Part shown: in pieces, positions 14,915 through 64,000 of the stretch
Position numbering within the stretch: position 1 is the first letter of the stretch
Layout of the letters: each line of letters opens with the position of its first letter
Assembly (NCBI GenBank): GCA_943356495.1
Contig: CALRFF010000001.1
Location: 92,864 to 156,863, forward strand
DNA: 64,000 bases
Direction: 5' to 3'
From: Candidatus Nomurabacteria bacterium
Lineage (GTDB): Bacteria; Patescibacteriota; Minisyncoccia; Phycocordibacterales; SBAW01
The notes under the pieces: generated by a model
The model's input: only the letters and a program-made list of their open reading frames with translations
What the model was told of the DNA's origin: nothing
Databases searched by the model: none
Made by a program: the position numbers and the translations under genes

Positions 14915-15415
14915 TTAGTTTGCTGCCGGCGTAACAGACAAGAGTTCGACCTCAAACAGGAGCGCCGAGTTCGGTGGGATAGGACCGACCGCTTGCGAGC
15001 CGTATGCCATTTCCGGCGGGATAAGCAGCGAGCGCTTGCCGCCGACCTTCATACCGTTTAGGCCCAAGTCCCAACCCGAGATCACTTCCCCCACCCCGAG
15101 GGTAAAAGTAAAGGGTGCGCGGCCTATCGAAGTATCAAACACCGTACCGTTGGTGAGCTTGCCCGTGTAATTGACGCTAACCGTGTCGCCGGCTTTTGCT
15201 GCGGCGCCCGTGCCCAATACTTGGTCGGTTACCACCAACCCCGTTGTCGCGCCCGCGTTATCTTGCGGCATAGATGATGAAGATGAAAAAAGATTACCTC
15301 CTATAAAAAAACTCACAACCACCAGCGACACCACTACGGCGATGCCTGTTTGTATTTGTTGCTTAGACATACGAAATATACTACCACACCTAGCGCTCGG
15401 TACTGGTAGCGGCAA
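14915..15415 (-). CDS. FKBP-type peptidyl-prolyl cis-trans isomerase, membrane-anchored
   Basis: C-terminal FKBP domain (GDTVSVNYTGKLTNGTVFDTS...GWDLGLNGMKVGGKRSLLIPPEMAYG). The true start may be the internal MSKQQIQ near 15370. Confidence 0.8.
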   Translation of the reverse strand: MPLPVPSARCGSIFRMSKQQIQTGIAVVVSLVVVSFFIGGNLFSSSSSMPQDNAGATTGLVVTDQVLGTGAAAKAGDTVSVNYTGKLTNGTVFDTSIGRAPFTFTLGVGEVISGWDLGLNGMKVGGKRSLLIPPEMAYGSQAVGPIPPNSALLFEVELLSVTPAAN

Positions 15416-41202: not shown

Positions 41203-42042
41203 ATGAAGCCTAAAGTCATTGCCATAGTAGGGCCGACCGCCTCGGGCAAGTCTGCTCTGGGTAATTTTCTTGCTACTAAACTTAGCGGCGAGGTTATCGC
41301 CGCCGACTCGCGGCAAGTGTACAAAGGCATGCGGGTTATCTCGCGCGCCGAGCGCGGGCACATGGTCGGTGTTGCCGACCCGCGCAAACAATACAGCGCC
41401 GGTGCCTACCAAAAAGCCGCAGAACGAATACTACGATATATCGTAGTATTCAAGAAAAAGGTGCCGATTGTTGTGGGCGGAACAGGGTTTTATGCCGATG
41501 CTTTACTGCGCGTTCCCCTGCCGCAAGTAGCGCCCAACGCTACACTGCGCACAACGCTCGCTAAAAAGACTCCGATGCAGCTGCTCGCAATGCTCAAAAA
41601 GCTGGACCCAAAGAGTGCCGCGCGCGTCGACCCAAAAAACATCGTGCGTCTGGTGCGCGCTATCGAGATAGTTAAAGCGTTGGGCAAAATACCCGCCCCT
41701 ATATACTCTTCCCCATATACCACGTTGTGGCTGGGGCTCCCAAACTCTAAAAATCTTACAGCCGGTGTCGAGGCACGACTCAAGGCCGGTATGGTAGCCG
41801 AGGCAAAAAAACTGCGCCGCACACTAAGCAAAAAACGCTACAAGGAGCTGGGGTTCGAGTTTGACCTGCTAGCCGACTATATAGACAAAAAAATTACCAA
41901 GCAGCAGTTAGTCGAGCGCATCGCCAACAGCGAACGAAAGTATGCCAAGCGCCAAAGCAAATGGTTTAAACGTTACAAAGATATACACTGGGTCAAAAAC
42001 AAAACAGAGGCGTTAAAACTTTCTAAAACCTTTTTACAGTAG
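41203..42042 (+). CDS. miaA: tRNA dimethylallyltransferase
   Basis: P-loop IAIVGPTASGKSAL and DSRQVYKGM motif. 279 aa. Confidence 0.9.
   Translation: MKPKVIAIVGPTASGKSALGNFLATKLSGEVIAADSRQVYKGMRVISRAERGHMVGVADPRKQYSAGAYQKAAERILRYIVVFKKKVPIVVGGTGFYADALLRVPLPQVAPNATLRTTLAKKTPMQLLAMLKKLDPKSAARVDPKNIVRLVRAIEIVKALGKIPAPIYSSPYTTLWLGLPNSKNLTAGVEARLKAGMVAEAKKLRRTLSKKRYKELGFEFDLLADYIDKKITKQQLVERIANSERKYAKRQSKWFKRYKDIHWVKNKTEALKLSKTFLQ
41426..41451. repeat. 26-bp perfect palindrome GAATACTACGATATATCGTAGTATTC inside the miaA coding sequence (member of a 3-copy family)
   Basis: Seen directly. Shares the 18-bp core ACTACGATATATCGTAGT with 60937..60964 and 61502..61529. Confidence 0.8.
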
Positions 42043-59351: not shown

Positions 59352-59550
59352 CCCTTAATTATACATGACGCAAAATGTAGGCTCCCCACACCGAGTACGC
59401 CACGACCGCAAGCAGGGCCAAAGACACTACCCCTAGAGCGTCTTTTTGTTTGCCGGCGTGTTTGCGAATCGTCTCCATACCTCTTATTACGCACGAGTGG
59501 CATGTTTCTTACATGAAAATGCCCCGCACGTAGTGGTGCGGGGCGGCCGG

Positions 59551-59774: not shown

Positions 59775-59809
59775 CAAAAGAAAACCGCCCGCACTTTCGT
59801 GCGGGCGGT
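59775..59809 (-). terminator. rho-independent terminator, copy 1 of a duplicated 33-nt module
   Basis: AAAGAAAACCGCCCGCACTTTCGTGCGGGCGG. On the minus strand the hairpin is followed by TTTTCTTTT. Identical copy at 60293..60328. Confidence 0.6.
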
Positions 59810-59812
59810 CAA

Positions 59813-60256
59813 TCAGGCAATCAGACCTTGACGGTTAAACCAGCGCAGGATCTCCTGCCCCATAGGCGTGGTGCGGTGCATGTCGGCGGTGGTAAACCAT
59901 GCCAGCTCCTCGACCTCGTTGCGCGGGGTAAGCATGCCGATGTAGTCGGCGTCGTAGCAGTACATCTTAAGCACCGTGCCCTCGACATAGCCGTGGCACG
60001 GACCCTCAAACGTGTGGAGATGCTCGATAGTGTTGAAGAGGAGCTGGATGTCGCCCTCTTCGTCCGACTCGCGCATCAGCGCCTCGGCCTGCGTTTCACC
60101 CTCGTCGATCTTGCCGCCGAGAGTGTAGAAAAGGGTCTGGCCTTTCGACCGGGCAAACAGCAACGCTTGGTCACGGACCAGCGTTAAAGCAACCTTTTCA
60201 ATAATCCCACTGGGTGCCGTCTTGAGCGCCTTGGGTGCTGCGGAGGTGTCGCTCAT
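59813..60256 (-). CDS. NUDIX hydrolase
   Basis: Nudix box GGKIDEGETQAEALMRESDEEGDI. Start set at MSDTS with SD GAGGAG. The longer ORF-track start would run through the upstream terminator. Confidence 0.75.
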   Translation of the reverse strand: MSDTSAAPKALKTAPSGIIEKVALTLVRDQALLFARSKGQTLFYTLGGKIDEGETQAEALMRESDEEGDIQLLFNTIEHLHTFEGPCHGYVEGTVLKMYCYDADYIGMLTPRNEVEELAWFTTADMHRTTPMGQEILRWFNRQGLIA

Positions 60257-60292
60257 GTTGTGCTCCTCGTTGTTCATCTGCGCCCACCCTAC

Positions 60293-60328
60293 CACAAAGA
60301 AAAACCGCCCGCACTTTCGTGCGGGCGG
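60293..60328 (-). terminator. rho-independent terminator, copy 2 of the duplicated module
   Basis: Same sequence as 59775..59809. Confidence 0.6.
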
Positions 60329-60341
60329 CAACTCTCGAGGC

Positions 60342-60446
60342 CTACGCAGGCCAAATAGGCAAAAACGGCGCGAGATAAATCATCACGCCGGCGGCGATAC
60401 CAACCAGCTGCATGACAAGCTCCAGCCCAGCACCCGCACACATCAT
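60342..60446 (-). CDS. very small hydrophobic peptide (33-34 aa), candidate only
   Basis: MMCAGAGLELVMQLVGIAAGVMIYLAPFLPIWPA. GGGAG just upstream. Followed by a terminator. Not in the ORF track. Confidence 0.25.
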   Translation of the reverse strand: MMCAGAGLELVMQLVGIAAGVMIYLAPFLPIWPA

Positions 60447-60473
60447 ACTCCCGTGCGGCGTGGGCAAAGCGAG

Positions 60474-60626
60474 TTATCCACTTCGCAGGGCGTCTTCGAT
60501 CTCTTGGGCGGCCTCTGTGGTGCGCTGAGTTGAGCGCGTCGCCTGCCTGCGGATCTTCTCCGCCTGCTCGATGAGCCCTTGGTTCTGCACCGCGTTAAGC
60601 GGCGTAGCGCTTTCGGTATCAATCAT
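60474..60626 (-). CDS. small hydrophilic protein (50 aa), candidate only
   Basis: MIDTESATPLNAVQNQGLIEQAEKIRRQATRSTQRTTEAAQEIEDALRSG. SD GGAGAAGG upstream. Not in the ORF track. Confidence 0.3.
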   Translation of the reverse strand: MIDTESATPLNAVQNQGLIEQAEKIRRQATRSTQRTTEAAQEIEDALRSG

Positions 60627-60661
60627 GACCTTCTCCCATCTCTTCTGCCGCTACCTTAGCA

Positions 60662-60900
60662 TAAAAAAATCCGCTCGGTGAAGCGGGAGTACGGTCGCAA
60701 GACCTAGTAATCCTGACCGGCCGACGGAGGCCAAATCACGCGACACCGAGCGGGGCGGCCCTTGAGGAATTTCGTAGAGGGCCAACGTGGACCGTTATAG
60801 TTACGGTCTGCGTCAAGCGGCGACATACCTTTGATGCTTGCACACCTCCGGCATCCGACCCGCTTGCGGCAATGTCTAAGCGAGGCAGCACCCTCACCTT
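60662..60900 (-). ncRNA. candidate novel structured ncRNA (about 240 nt), unclassified
   Basis: ORF-free, about 60% GC interval bounded by an upstream palindromic terminator (60937..60964), a promoter-like element with extended -10 (minus strand TTTCAT-N16-TGcTACAGT at about 60905-60935) and a downstream terminator (CCGCT-TCACCG-AGCGG + ATTTTTTT at 60661..60689). Several internal 6-bp hairpins. No match to tmRNA, RNase P, SRP or 6S motifs that I can recognise. Confidence 0.3.
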
Positions 60901-60936
60901 CGACCGAGCTACTGTAGCACGCCCAAACCGTTATGA

Positions 60937-60964
60937 AAAAGACTACGATATATCGTAGTCTTTT
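60937..60964. repeat. 28-bp perfect palindrome AAAAGACTACGATATATCGTAGTCTTTT (bidirectional terminator-like) overlapping the DUF1653 stop codon
   Basis: Seen directly. Confidence 0.8.
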
Positions 60965-61235
60965 ATGCCTTGGTAAACCGCTCTACCTTTTGGCTCTGGC
61001 CACCCTGCCTGCCGGCAGGCAGGTCCACCACCTCGCGCCACTCGCGCAAGGGCCTCGTAAAATACGGCGCATCGGGTTGCTCGTACATCGGCTCGTACAC
61101 TACCATCCATTCATCGTCGTTGGAGTGGAGCGCGATTAAAACAACTTTGTAGCTGTCTCCTTTGTAGTGTTTATAAACCTCCCCCGCCTTAGGAGCGTCT
61201 GCGGGCACTGGCGGTATTGGGTCACCTTTGCTCAT
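60963..61235 (-). CDS. DUF1653-family protein
   Basis: MSKGDPIPPVPADAPKAGEVYKHYKGDSYKVVLIALHSNDDEWMVVYEPMY. The YKHYKG...Y...V pattern is typical of DUF1653. Start trimmed to MSKGD. Confidence 0.65.
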   Translation of the reverse strand: MSKGDPIPPVPADAPKAGEVYKHYKGDSYKVVLIALHSNDDEWMVVYEPMYEQPDAPYFTRPLREWREVVDLPAGRQGGQSQKVERFTKA

Positions 61236-61334
61236 AGCGTAAGTATAAACCGTGTTATAGTAATAAGGCGACGGAGGGGCTTCTCTCAGTTCGCGACGAA
61301 CCTTGGTTCCGAAGTGCGTCACGGAGGAACAACA

Positions 61335-61421
61335 ATGAAGATGGTGAAAAGTCTTCTCGAGGGTGCCGGACTCGGCATCGTCAAAGAGACCGGCGGTCTC
61401 GAAGGCTCCGGCCTGATCTAA
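61335..61421 (+). CDS. small Gly-rich peptide (28 aa), candidate
   Basis: MKMVKSLLEGAGLGIVKETGGLEGSGLI. SD GGAGGA 7 nt upstream. Strong terminator CCCCTCGCCTAGCGCGAGGGG + TTTTTTT downstream. Promoter-like TGtTATAGT at about 61253. Confidence 0.35.
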   Translation: MKMVKSLLEGAGLGIVKETGGLEGSGLI

Positions 61422-61458
61422 CCACCGACATCTGCCTGAAGGTCTCCTCAACAAATAC

Positions 61459-61492
61459 CCCTCGCCTAGCGCGAGGGGCTCGTTTTTTTAAA
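61459..61492 (+). terminator. rho-independent terminator after the small peptide gene
   Basis: CCCCTCGCCTAGCGCGAGGGGCTCGTTTTTTT. Confidence 0.6.
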
Positions 61493-61501
61493 GAATAAAC
61501 C

Positions 61502-61529
61502 AAAACACTACGATATATCGTAGTGTTTT
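61502..61529. repeat. 28-bp perfect palindrome AAAACACTACGATATATCGTAGTGTTTT between the small peptide gene and the gyrA 3' end
   Basis: Seen directly. Confidence 0.8.
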
Positions 61530-61545: not shown

Positions 61546-64000
61546 CTATAAACAAACGAAGCTGGCGATTGCGTCGCCGTCGCGGAGTTTCATTATGCGC
61601 ACGCCTTGAGTACTGCGTGATTGAGTTTTGATCTCATCGAGGCCGGTGCGGATTACCTGCCCTTTTTTGGAGATAACCACCACCTCCTCTTCGCCACCCT
61701 CGCCGCGGGTAATAATGCGCGAGGTGATTAGCGGGCCGGTCTTGGCGGTTGCTTGCATGGTCTTAATGCCAGAGCCGCCGCGACCCTGCACTTTGTACTC
61801 CTCTATCTTGGTTGCTTTGCCATAGCCGTTGCGCGAGACCACCAACACCTCAAGGCCTTTCGCGCCTTTCTGCACCACGTCGGCGCCCACTATTGTGTCG
61901 CCGCTACCAAGGCGCATGCCGCGCACGCCGCCGGCGGCGCGGCCCATGGCGCGGACATCGGCCTCTTTAAAGCGAATACTCTGCCCCTTTGCCGTGCTCA
62001 AAAAGATTTCATCGCCCTTCTCTACAAATAATGCGGCAATAAGCTCATCGCCCTTCTGCAATTTTTGCGCGATAAGCCCCGAGCGGCGCACATCGTGGAA
62101 GGCGGTGGCATCCACTTTTTTAACCGTGCCCTGCTTGGTTATCATGTACAGAAACTTCTCCCCCTCTTTTTGGTTTTTGCGCATCGGCAGGACGCTCGTC
62201 ACTTTTTCCGCGTCGGTAATAGAGAGGAAGTTAACTATCGGGCGGCCCTTGGTCGAGCGCTTACCCTCCGGTATCTCGTAGAACTTAAGCTGGTAGGCCT
62301 TGCCGAGGTTCGTAAAGAACAAAAGGTCACTGTGCGTCGAGGTGGTCATAAAGGTAGTAACAAAGTCCTCCTCTTTGGTGTCGAGGTCGATAACGCCCAC
62401 GCCACCGCGCTTTTGCCGGCGGAACTCCTCGGGGTTAGTGCGCTTAACGTAGCCGCCGGCGGTAAGCACCAGCACCTGCTCTTGGTCGGCGACCATGTCC
62501 TCCTCGGAAATTACCCCGGCCGCGCCCTTAACTACTTTTGTCGCGCGCGGGTTGCCGAACTTTTTAGCAATGTCCTCGATTTCTTGCTTAATAACGCCGA
62601 GCATTTTTTTGTCGGACTTAAGTAGCGCGACGCACTCCTCGATAAAAGCCTGCACCTCCTTAAGCTCGTCTTCTACCTTGCGGCGCTCGAGGTTGGCAAG
62701 ACGCGACAGGCGCATCTCCAAAATGGCCGATGCCTGCAGGTCGGAAAACTTGAACTTTTTTATAAGGTTGGCGTGCGCCTCCGGCACGTCTTTGCTGGCG
62801 CGGATGGTCTTGATAACCTCGTCGATATGGTCGAGCGCCTTAACAAGCCCGAGCAAAATATGCTCGCGCTCCTGCGCCTTTTTAAGATCAAACTCGGTGC
62901 GGCGCTTAACTATCTCGCGGCGGTGCTTGATAAACTCCTCCAAAATGCCTTTGAGCGAAATCGTTTGCGGCACGCCGTCGACCAGCACCACCATGTTGTA
63001 GTGGAAGGTGTCCTCGAGCGAGGTGTACTTGTACAAATAGTTGAGCACGCGCTGCGGCTGGGCGCCCTGCTTAAGCTCCACCACAATACGAATGTCTTTG
63101 GTCGACTCGTCGCGCAACCCGCGGATACCCTCGAGCTTTTTGTCGCGCACCAAGTCGGCGATGCGCACAATAAGGTCCGACTTGTTAACGCGGTACGGTA
63201 TCGACGTGATGATAATCTGGTAGTCACCTTTTTTGGTCTCGGTAATTTCGGCCACGCCGCGCACCACCACGCCGCCGCGACCGGTCGAAAACGCGTGGAG
63301 CATCGCTTTTTTATCGTAGGCTATCGCTCCCGTCGGGAAATCCGGCCCCGGCACAAACTCCATCAGCTCCTCGACCGTTGCCGCAGGATTTTCTATCAAA
63401 TGCGCGAGCGCGTTGCTTACCTCGCCTAAGTTGTGGGGCGGGATACTGGTTGCCATACCAACGGCGATGCCGAGCGTGCCGTTGAGCAAAATGTTGGGCA
63501 CGGCCGCGGGCAACACCTCGGGCTCTTTTTGCGTGCCGTCGTAGTTGGGGCGCCACGCGACTGTCTCTTTTTCCAAATCGCGTAGCAACTCGCCGGCAAC
63601 ACCCGACATTTTTGCCTCGGTGTAGCGCATTGCGGCGGCCGAGTCGCCATCGATAGAACCAAAGTTACCTTGGCCGATAACCAAGGGGTAGCGCATCGAA
63701 AACTCCTGTGCCATCTTAACCATCGCGTCGTACACAGACGCGTCGCCGTGCGGGTGATATTTACCCAACACCTCGCCGACTACCGTTGCCGACTTGCGGA
63801 ATCGCGCCGAGGGGGTAAGCCCCATGCGGTGCATCGCGTAAAGTATGCGGCGGTGCACGGGTTTAAGCCCGTCGCGCACGTCGGGTAAGGCGCGCGAGGT
63901 AATAACCGACATCGCGTAGTCGAGGTAGCTGTCACGCATCTCGGTCGAGATGTTGCGCAGGACTATGCCCGATACAGTATCGTCTTCCTCGCCTCCGTGT
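61546..64000 (-). CDS. gyrA: DNA gyrase subunit A (5' end beyond the window)
   Basis: [33 protein letters not shown] and the active-site region. The frame stays open upstream of the annotated Met to the window edge ([25 protein letters not shown]). Confidence 0.95.

Follow-up and report, generated by a model that had tools for sequence, protein, structure and literature searches.

A probable stand-alone small RNA gene of a previously undescribed family in Adlerbacteria-like Patescibacteria

The closest described counterparts of the element reported here are the Rsa RNAs of Firmicutes (RsaE, RNAIII), in which unpaired UCCC motifs pair with Shine-Dalgarno (SD) sequences and prevent formation of the initiation complex, independently of Hfq (PMC2790875). 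The element lies in a 64,000-nucleotide (nt) stretch of contig CALRFF010000001.1, called the window at its full length, whose GyrA is 94-95% identical to that of two groundwater metagenome-assembled genomes (MAGs) and 76-86% identical to that of many 'Adlerbacteria'/Paceibacterota MAGs; judged from its sequence, the source is an Adlerbacteria-like Patescibacterium. At 60905..60664 on the minus strand, the window very probably carries a stand-alone, separately transcribed, structured non-coding RNA (ncRNA) gene of about 240 nt, and its assignment to a previously undescribed RNA family of Adlerbacteria-like Patescibacteria is well supported. Stand-alone small RNAs (sRNAs) are a known kind of bacterial gene; this family is new in a phylum where none has been characterised, and in the literature we found no description of small or regulatory RNAs in Patescibacteria (Candidate Phyla Radiation). 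Patescibacteria account for a large part of bacterial diversity, with very small genomes and few known regulators, and a conserved structured sRNA offers a concrete handle on their post-transcriptional control.

The layout of the new family is like that of the Rsa class (RsaE/RoxS, RsaA, and hairpins 7, 13 and 14 of RNAIII): UCACCUCC, CUCCCC and CCCGUC are placed in predicted loops or junctions, that is, the unpaired C-rich motif complementary to the SD sequence that typifies Rsa RNAs is found here by prediction. The two nevertheless differ in several respects. There is no sequence or structural homology between them and no Rfam match to RsaE; the Rsa motif is UCCC, whereas the main motif of the new family copies a longer piece of the 16S rRNA tail (UCACCUCC); Rsa RNAs end in a simple terminator hairpin, whereas the terminator stem of the new family encloses a conserved three-way junction; and the phylum is a different one. 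The loop that appears to replicate the 16S anti-SD tail and the terminator stem predicted to enclose a three-way junction are the unusual features of the family.

The proposed RNA and its boundary elements are placed as follows:

60664..60905, minus strand: proposed small RNA, about 242 nt, from promoter box to terminator, with no open reading frame (ORF) of 60 amino acids (aa) or more
60911..60919, minus strand: extended -10-like box TGCTACAGT, read from the sequence, which would place the transcription start at about 60905
60663..60669, minus strand: U7 run of the intrinsic terminator, seen in the sequence and in a terminator scan
60937..60964, both strands: perfect 28-nt palindrome AAAAGACTACGATATATCGTAGTCTTTT with an A-run and a T-run, a boundary element outside the RNA

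On the minus strand, the intrinsic terminator reads CCGCTTCACCGAGCGG (also written CCGCUUCACCGAGCGG), with its stem at 60686..60671 followed by A and T7, as reported by a terminator scan that yielded 13 terminator-like sites over 2.5 kb, where 2.7 were expected. The palindrome AAAAGACTACGATATATCGTAGTCTTTT begins at the stop codon of the DUF1653 gene, and a near-identical copy at 61502-61529, 3' of gyrA, was scored as terminator-like on both strands; the copy at 60937 went unscored because its A/T run is absorbed into the stem. Since it starts at the DUF1653 stop codon and its gyrA twin scores as a terminator, the simplest reading of the element at 60937-60964 is as a terminator for the upstream gene, probably a bidirectional one. 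Its inclusion in the RNA unit was considered and rejected, as the other homologues lack it upstream of their RNA.

Both bounding terminators (60686-60663 and 60937-60964) had been pointed out in a preliminary description of the interval, together with the lack of an ORF of at least 60 aa on either strand. The latter is borne out inside 60662-60936, where the longest ORFs have 53, 44 and 40 aa, all on the minus strand; the DUF1653 stop codon is touched only by the right edge of the interval (60963-60965). The promoter-like element of the same description stands as an extended -10, TGCTACAGT, matched by a TAnAGT box in all six homologues, whereas a full -35/-10 promoter was not found in the interval by consensus scan. 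Both hairpins that it named are present (60790-60808 and 60757-60783), and the GC-richness that it noted disappears relative to the genome, with a GC content of 0.554 for the interval, 0.595 for the RNA body and 0.551 for the window. Folding energy is modestly unusual compared with shuffles (z = -2.8 for the minus and -3.0 for the plus strand), and because it beats them only mildly, the single window sequence is suggestive and unconvincing. The weight of the evidence for an RNA is conservation, not the single sequence.

Conservation was assessed over a family set of seven distinct sequences, namely the window copy and those of loci L001, L023, L089, L109, L119 and L191. Two of them, L001 (9327-9491) and L023 (13563-13683), were found by nhmmer with the interval as query against 80 GyrA loci, and L191 was found on the contig of a HAD-hydrolase homologue. 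The remaining three (L089, L109, L119) came from a metagenome scan that used both invariant strands of the closing helix as its pattern and returned 39 matches, with 5 distinct contigs real and the rest chance matches in GC-rich coding DNA. The assemblies behind L001/L094 and L023/L096 (ERZ1292629 and ERZ1292632) are from Hainich groundwater wells, and L089, L109, L119 and L191 are from soil samples. Identity among the seven members is 60-81% over the alignable 3' part. The promoter box, the body and the terminator are kept as a block in seven distinct contigs as the neighbouring genes change, with one copy per contig and no terminal repeats. All six homologues carry a TAnAGT box (mostly with TGn) at a fixed distance, 4-8 nt before the conserved 5' end GCGGAGC, and a terminator stem with a U-rich run follows as the last helix (P1) in 7/7. 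The boxes of the homologues are:

L001 and L023: TGCTATAGT
L119: TGGTATAGT
L109: GGTACAGT
L191: GCATAGT
L089: TAGAGT

When folded individually, all seven sequences show a common architecture, with a 5' hairpin, zero to two lineage-specific inserted hairpins, a hairpin H2 and a 3' three-way-junction domain. The elements of the window copy, from 5' to 3', are:

60878..60900, minus strand: 5' hairpin A, AAGGUGAGG-GUGCUG-CCUCGCUU, from the minimum-free-energy fold
60814..60866, minus strand: long inserted hairpin B, in the window copy only, from the minimum-free-energy fold
60790..60808, minus strand: inserted hairpin C, GACCGUAACUAUAACGGUC, from the fold and not conserved in the homologues
60757..60783, minus strand: hairpin H2, GGCCCU-CUACGAAAUUCCUCA-AGGGCC, with 5/7 stem pairs compensatory
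60744..60753, minus strand: 5' strand of P1, CCGCUCGGUG, invariant in 7/7 and pairing with 60680-60671
60719..60732, minus strand: hairpin P2, GGCC-UCCGUC-GGCC, with 4/6 pairs compensatory and 100% of cells paired
60708..60715, minus strand: junction motif CAGGAUUA, family consensus YCAGGAUYA, present in 7/7
60694..60703, minus strand: mini-hairpin P3, GUC-UUGC-GAC (family GUC-UYGC-GAC), present in 5/7
60684..60693, minus strand: J3/1, CGUACUCCCG, the second C-rich (UCCC) motif, family form CGUACUCCCCG
60671..60680, minus strand: 3' strand of P1, CACCGAGCGG, which directly abuts the U-run

In a hand alignment, for which N was used as gap filler so that MAFFT kept the columns, 92.8% of cells pair and 11/36 pairs are compensatory, values that 0/500 shuffles reach; a one-column (1-nt) slide of the partner leaves no more than 47% of cells paired. 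Besides the compensatory pairs of H2 and P2 listed above, P1 has 1/14, with 10 of its pairs invariant, and RNAalifold independently recovers H2, P1 and P2. A covariance model (R1), built from L191 alone and without the window sequence, matched the window at 60660-60818(-) with 39.9 bits (E about 1e-7 in 1.4 Mb) and recovers 7/7 members (E <= 3e-8). In the Infernal alignment 90.8% of cells pair and 21/39 pairs are compensatory, a count that is inflated because the 5' hairpins of the window and L001 are aligned to non-homologous hairpins. The assignment of the strand comes from the G-U pairs, the U-run and a score of 103.7 vs 22.3 bits between strands. A second covariance model, from all seven sequences, gave no further members in 199 loci; it matched L011 and L071 weakly, at what are ordinary terminators, and L002 ambiguously. 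The suggestion that the interval encodes a candidate novel ncRNA is therefore supported by block conservation, covariation and a single-homologue covariance model, and the conserved structure that the preliminary description proposed to look for in relatives is present in six homologues, with helices that covary.

Comparison with known families gave consistently negative results. Rfam 15 at the gathering score returned only 12 tRNAs over the whole 64 kb; with permissive filters at E <= 10, no match overlapped 60662-60936, and at E <= 5 none fell on the RNA in L191, L109, L119 or L089. ARAGORN found no tmRNA. These scans agree with the earlier failure to match the interval to tmRNA, RNase P, the signal recognition particle (SRP) RNA or 6S RNA, and they leave the idea of a novel ncRNA clear of the first of two outcomes that had been named as counting against it, an Rfam match to a known family. 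The second, a conserved short ORF, did not appear either: six-frame translation of the seven homologues showed no conserved reading frame, with stops and non-triplet indels breaking all six frames, and the 53-aa and 44-aa ORFs of the interval have no Pfam match. BLAST gave no match in annotated phage and plasmid records. With its own extended -10 promoter, its own intrinsic terminator and no conserved ORF, the locus appears from these sequence features to be an independent gene, and adding the family to RNA databases would stop spurious ORF annotation of this intergenic region.

The individual helices differ in how they vary across the family. In the six homologues, the 5' hairpin (H1) has the form GGAGC.../...GCUCC around inner pairs that differ, and its loop resembles GAUGCUGA; hairpin A of the window is tentatively its counterpart on the basis of the predicted folds. 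Hairpin B is missing from the four compact homologues (153-166 nt). The H2 loop is the best conserved of the unpaired elements; its motif has the family form (G)AyUCACCUC(C), with UCACCUC(C) in 6/7 and UUCCUC in the window (60764-60772), and its unpaired probability, predicted by partition function, is 0.74-0.97 in all seven. The closing helix P1, CCCGCUCGGUG / CACCGAGCGGG, is invariant, has 10-14 bp and is predicted to pair with a probability of about 1 in all seven; because it sits directly against the U-run, it doubles as the terminator stem. Its extension is GUGAAG/CUUCAC in L023 and L089 vs GUGCAG/CUGCAC in L191. This compensatory change from A-U to C-G supports, at the level of aligned sequences, a long-range P1 over the local 6-7 bp hairpin CCGCUU-CACC-GAGCGG that J3/1 and 60671-60686 can form, as reported by the terminator scan.

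Within the junction domain, the stem of P2 is GGCC/GGCC, GCGUG/CACGC, GGUCC/GGACC, UGCCC/GGGCA or GGCCU/AGGCC across the family. The junction motif, with the variants CAGAUCA in L109 and CAGGACCA in L001, may pair with UGAUUU at 60733-60738 (UGAUUY in the family) in a tentative helix, P2a, of 6-7 bp, which takes a clean form in L023 and L109; over the whole family 83% of its cells pair, and other registers are possible. The loop of P3 is deleted in L023 and its 3' arm in L001, and P3 receives no covariation support because it shows almost no variation. The UCCC(C) motif of J3/1 occurs in 6/7, with CUCCCC predicted 0.18-0.74 unpaired, and in four members the P2 loop supplies a third C-rich stretch, CCCGUC. 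Conservation is higher at the junction nucleotides YCAGGAUYA and CGUACUCCCC than in the stems.

The most likely mechanism, we infer, is SD masking in trans. It is preferred because a 5' hairpin, unpaired C-rich motifs and a 3' terminator match the Rsa layout, and because genes in the window use SD sequences, their ribosome-binding sites (RBSs) being of the GGAGG type. The RNA would act in trans as an Hfq-independent regulator whose exposed C/U-rich segments are complementary to the SD sequences GGAGGUGA and GGGGAG. These segments, the anti-SD-like loop UCACCUCC, the CUCCCC of J3/1 and the CCCGUC of the P2 loop, would pair with the RBSs of target mRNAs and thereby block binding of the 30S subunit, and nucleases would be kept off the RNA by its 5' hairpin and terminator domain. 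The universal 3' tail of 16S rRNA is UUGGAUCACCUCC (= UUGGAUCACCUCCUUA), and the H2 loop with its flanks, UUGGAUUCACCUCC in L023 and GGAUUCACCUCCU in L191, equals this tail apart from one inserted U, the anti-SD string GGAUCACCUCCUUA included. The rRNA tail is a free 3' end, whereas the new family shows the motif in a hairpin loop. The predictions of loop mimicry and of a junction-terminator can be tested in vitro without cultivation. Taken together, a stand-alone RNA gene of a new family that masks SD sequences in trans is the best explanation of the whole, held as a leading possibility that stops a little short of probable. A pairing of the H2 loop UUCACC with the 5' strand of P1, GGUGAA, was also considered and rejected: L191 changes P1 (A-U to C-G) and leaves the loop unchanged.

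Several observations weigh against this explanation. The H2 loop of the window itself is degenerate, AAAUUCCUC, and keeps only CCUC. Matches to the loop complement in the window are at chance level (5/100 shuffles reach the count), with none before a credible start codon, and a target search for the loop complement in the window and L023 found nothing above chance. Many genes of the clade look leaderless, which would leave a smaller pool of SD targets, and the elaborate conserved three-way junction exceeds what a plain base-pairing sRNA needs, which hints at a protein or ligand partner. The family comprises only seven sequences, its alignments were made to fit the structure, manually or through a covariance model, and the invariance of P1 is partly ascertainment because three of the seven were retrieved with a pattern that fixed P1. 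Finally, the RNA is missing at the syntenic position in most of the relatives examined, where other small genes are found instead.

Among the alternatives, the one that survives best, though we regard it as unlikely, is a protein-binding decoy. Here, the H2 loop and its flanks would copy the 16S tail (GGAUCACCUCC) and the junction would titrate Era, 3'-end maturation nucleases or bS21/S1, or else the GGA motifs (CAGGAU, CGGAUG) would act as a sponge for a CsrA-like regulator. Era recognises the 16S rRNA tail, and the likeness to that tail extends past CCUCC, as UUGGAU-CACCUCC in L023 and GGAU-CACCUCCU in L191; every member, however, carries one extra nucleotide relative to it. The high conservation of the junction nucleotides would also suit a protein partner. 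As to a sponge, CsrB, RsmY and RsmZ are likewise small RNAs with a terminator and GGA motifs, and CAGGAU resembles what we take to be the core selected by CsrA in systematic evolution of ligands by exponential enrichment (SELEX). The number of GGA motifs in the new family, in contrast, is 2-5 per RNA, about the level expected from composition, and they are not conserved in the H1 and H2 loops (GGA in 3/7 H2 loops), L109 having only 2 GGA together with CAGAUCA. Since these motifs are few and not conserved, and since CAGGAU is mostly paired by prediction (0.04-0.45 unpaired), a sponge of the CsrA type is unlikely. Expression of csrA is reported to be high in ultra-small groundwater prokaryotes (PMC9938205), whereas tblastn for CsrA, Hfq and ProQ was negative in the collected loci, which cover small parts of the genomes.

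Slightly less likely still is a cis-acting attenuator or riboswitch-like leader, in which the junction would sense a ligand or protein and read-through into a HAD/NUDIX/HIT nucleotide-hydrolase cluster would depend on which of two competing helices forms, P1 or the local hairpin CCCGCUU-CACC-GAGCGGG. Three-way-junction riboswitches of the purine and TPP types have the same plan, with P1 closing a conserved junction beside a terminator and an alternative pairing that shares a strand; here the 3' strand GAGCGGG is common to two mutually exclusive pairings, the downstream genes are all co-oriented, and the RNA always lies in a HAD/NUDIX/DUF1653/HIT neighbourhood. Unlike those riboswitches, however, the new family shows no evident antiterminator state: either helix should terminate because both end directly at the U-run, and P1 is predicted with a probability of about 1. 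Moreover, the downstream gene differs at nearly every locus, with its own promoter after the U-run in three of them, and no Rfam riboswitch model matches.

A further reading, to which we assign a low probability, takes the loop as a mimic of the 16S tail proper, in which GGAU(U)CACCUCC on a stable scaffold would act as a decoy that competes with the 30S subunit for SD-led mRNAs or titrates a factor recognising the tail (Era or a 3'-end processing enzyme). If true, competition of the mimic with the 30S subunit would shift translation toward the leaderless mRNAs of reduced genomes, and rRNA-tail mimicry would be a form of global translational control not described for bacteria.

That the RNA is a highly divergent housekeeping RNA (6S, SRP/4.5S, RNase P or tmRNA) missed by Rfam is very improbable. 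Its size of 150-250 nt, strong promoter and terminator and high structure content would be in keeping with such a role, and patescibacterial RNAs are often atypical; yet permissive Rfam searches at E <= 10 (window interval and four homologues) give no match, ARAGORN is negative, the 5' and 3' ends are unpaired, unlike those of 6S and 4.5S, the sequence lacks a GGAA/AGCA SRP motif, P4 motifs and a tRNA-like end, the RNA is missing at the syntenic site in most close relatives, and its identity is 60% between genomes whose GyrA is 94% identical. Equally improbable is the absence of any RNA gene, the block being conserved intergenic DNA (upstream terminator plus downstream promoter or operator) or a mobile-element remnant, as the location in a variable island and the use of the terminator 16-mer as a plain terminator in many viral contigs might suggest. 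Against this stand compensatory changes in H2 and P2, two internal helices that are neither terminator nor operator, the clear asymmetry between strands, the -10 box conserved upstream of the block, a single copy per contig with no terminal repeats, and an upstream gene that has its own terminator in the window (60937-60964).

The preferred reading of a stand-alone RNA gene has to be set in a variable neighbourhood. Synteny-based retrieval (80 GyrA loci plus loci of DUF1653 and HAD homologues) recovered the RNA only in L001, L023 and L191. The window RNA is 78% identical to L089 (2851-3017) and 60% identical to L001 (9262-9470), while GyrA of the latter is 94% identical; because of this discrepancy and because most syntenic loci lack the RNA, the gene is regarded as patchily distributed within a variable island. 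The sequences appear to form two subtypes, with the window, L089, L023, L109 and L191 in one and L001 and L119 in the other, and the pattern suggests exchange or rapid turnover in the variable island between the DUF1653/HAD/NUDIX genes and a methyltransferase cluster. In the window, the order of minus-strand transcription downstream of gyrA is gyrA, DUF1653, the ORF-free interval, a 50-aa ORF, a 41-aa ORF, NUDIX, methyltransferase and solute-binding protein. The genes nearest to the RNA in the window, and its neighbours across the family, are:

61546-63939, minus strand: gyrA
60963-61241, minus strand: DUF1653 gene
60474-60626, minus strand: 50-aa ORF with a strong RBS
60342-60467, minus strand: 41-aa hydrophobic ORF
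59813-60331, minus strand: NUDIX gene
Upstream genes in the family: DUF1653 (window, L109); a 71-aa ORF after DUF1653 (L089); HAD (L001, L023); NUDIX (L191)
Downstream genes in the family: the 50-aa ORF (window, L001); NUDIX (L023); a HIT-family protein (L109); a helix-turn-helix (HTH) protein (L191); an 83-aa membrane protein (L119)

The downstream genes of L023, L109 and L119 have their own TATACT box right after the U-run, 6-10 nt before the start codon. At L023 13725-13750, L109 (minus) about 470-455 and L119 (minus) about 1840-1820, the genes that begin 6-10 nt after TATACT do so without an SD sequence, a sequence pattern which suggests that leaderless mRNAs are frequent in the clade. The 50-aa ORF at 60474-60626 has GGGAGAAGG as its RBS and, at 60661-60653, a TGCTAAGGT box of its own, and its leader and start are kept in L001 (9490-9525); neither it nor the 41-aa ORF, both downstream of the RNA, has a Pfam match.

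Partial likenesses to the RNA occur elsewhere. The viral scan found the terminator 16-mer alone and no other part of the RNA: CCGCTTCACCGAGCGG with a T-run after it is present in dozens of IMG/VR viral contigs (loci L125-L190) as a simple terminator-like hairpin. L002 14866-14951 (+) has a TATAGT box, GCGGCAGGAUC... and a terminator, CCCGCUCCGCGC-GGCAAU-GCGCGGAGCGGG, with the outer P1 pairs shared, and may on these sequence grounds be a miniature relative of the RNA, with a covariance-model score of only 25 bits (E about 0.003). Near-identical strong terminators, GCCGCCCGCACGAAAGUGCGGGCGGUUUUU, lie 520 nt apart on the minus strand, at 59783-59810 and 60304-60329; ahead of the second stands AUUUGGCCUGCGUAGGCC (60339-60356), which resembles the P2 region of the RNA (AUUUGGCCUCCGUCGGCC), and 60298-60391(-) has weak, sub-threshold Rfam matches to sRNAs.

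A shorter palindrome, (A)CTACGATATATCGTAG(T), of 16-18 nt, occurs three times in the window (41431-41446, 60943-60958 and 61508-61523) vs 0.07 expected. Two of the copies follow stop codons directly, have A and T runs on their flanks and resemble bidirectional terminators; one lies inside a coding region reading ..ILRYIVVF.... Related copies occur in relatives, at about 3790-3815 in L193 and at 13321-13340 in L002. The palindrome may serve as a terminator module, as a binding site for a protein or as a DNA signal of the uptake type.

Between gyrA and DUF1653, a 28-aa ORF, MKMVKSLLEGAGLGIVKETGGLEGSGLI, at 61335-61421 (+), has a GGAGG RBS and its own terminator at 61458-61478, and it overlaps the N-terminal extension of the mechanically called DUF1653 ORF. 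At 59359-59520 (-), a membrane peptide of about 39 aa, METIRKHAGKQKDALGVVSLALLAVVAYSVWGAYILRHV, and the leader in front of it, TTCATGTAAGAAnCA...CRTGCGTAAT, are both conserved. Leader and peptide are also present in L002 (about 14960-15010), L120, L124, L193 and L199, and in many relatives they are located upstream of a cluster of methyltransferase, solute-binding protein and type IV secretion system (T4SS)-pilin genes.

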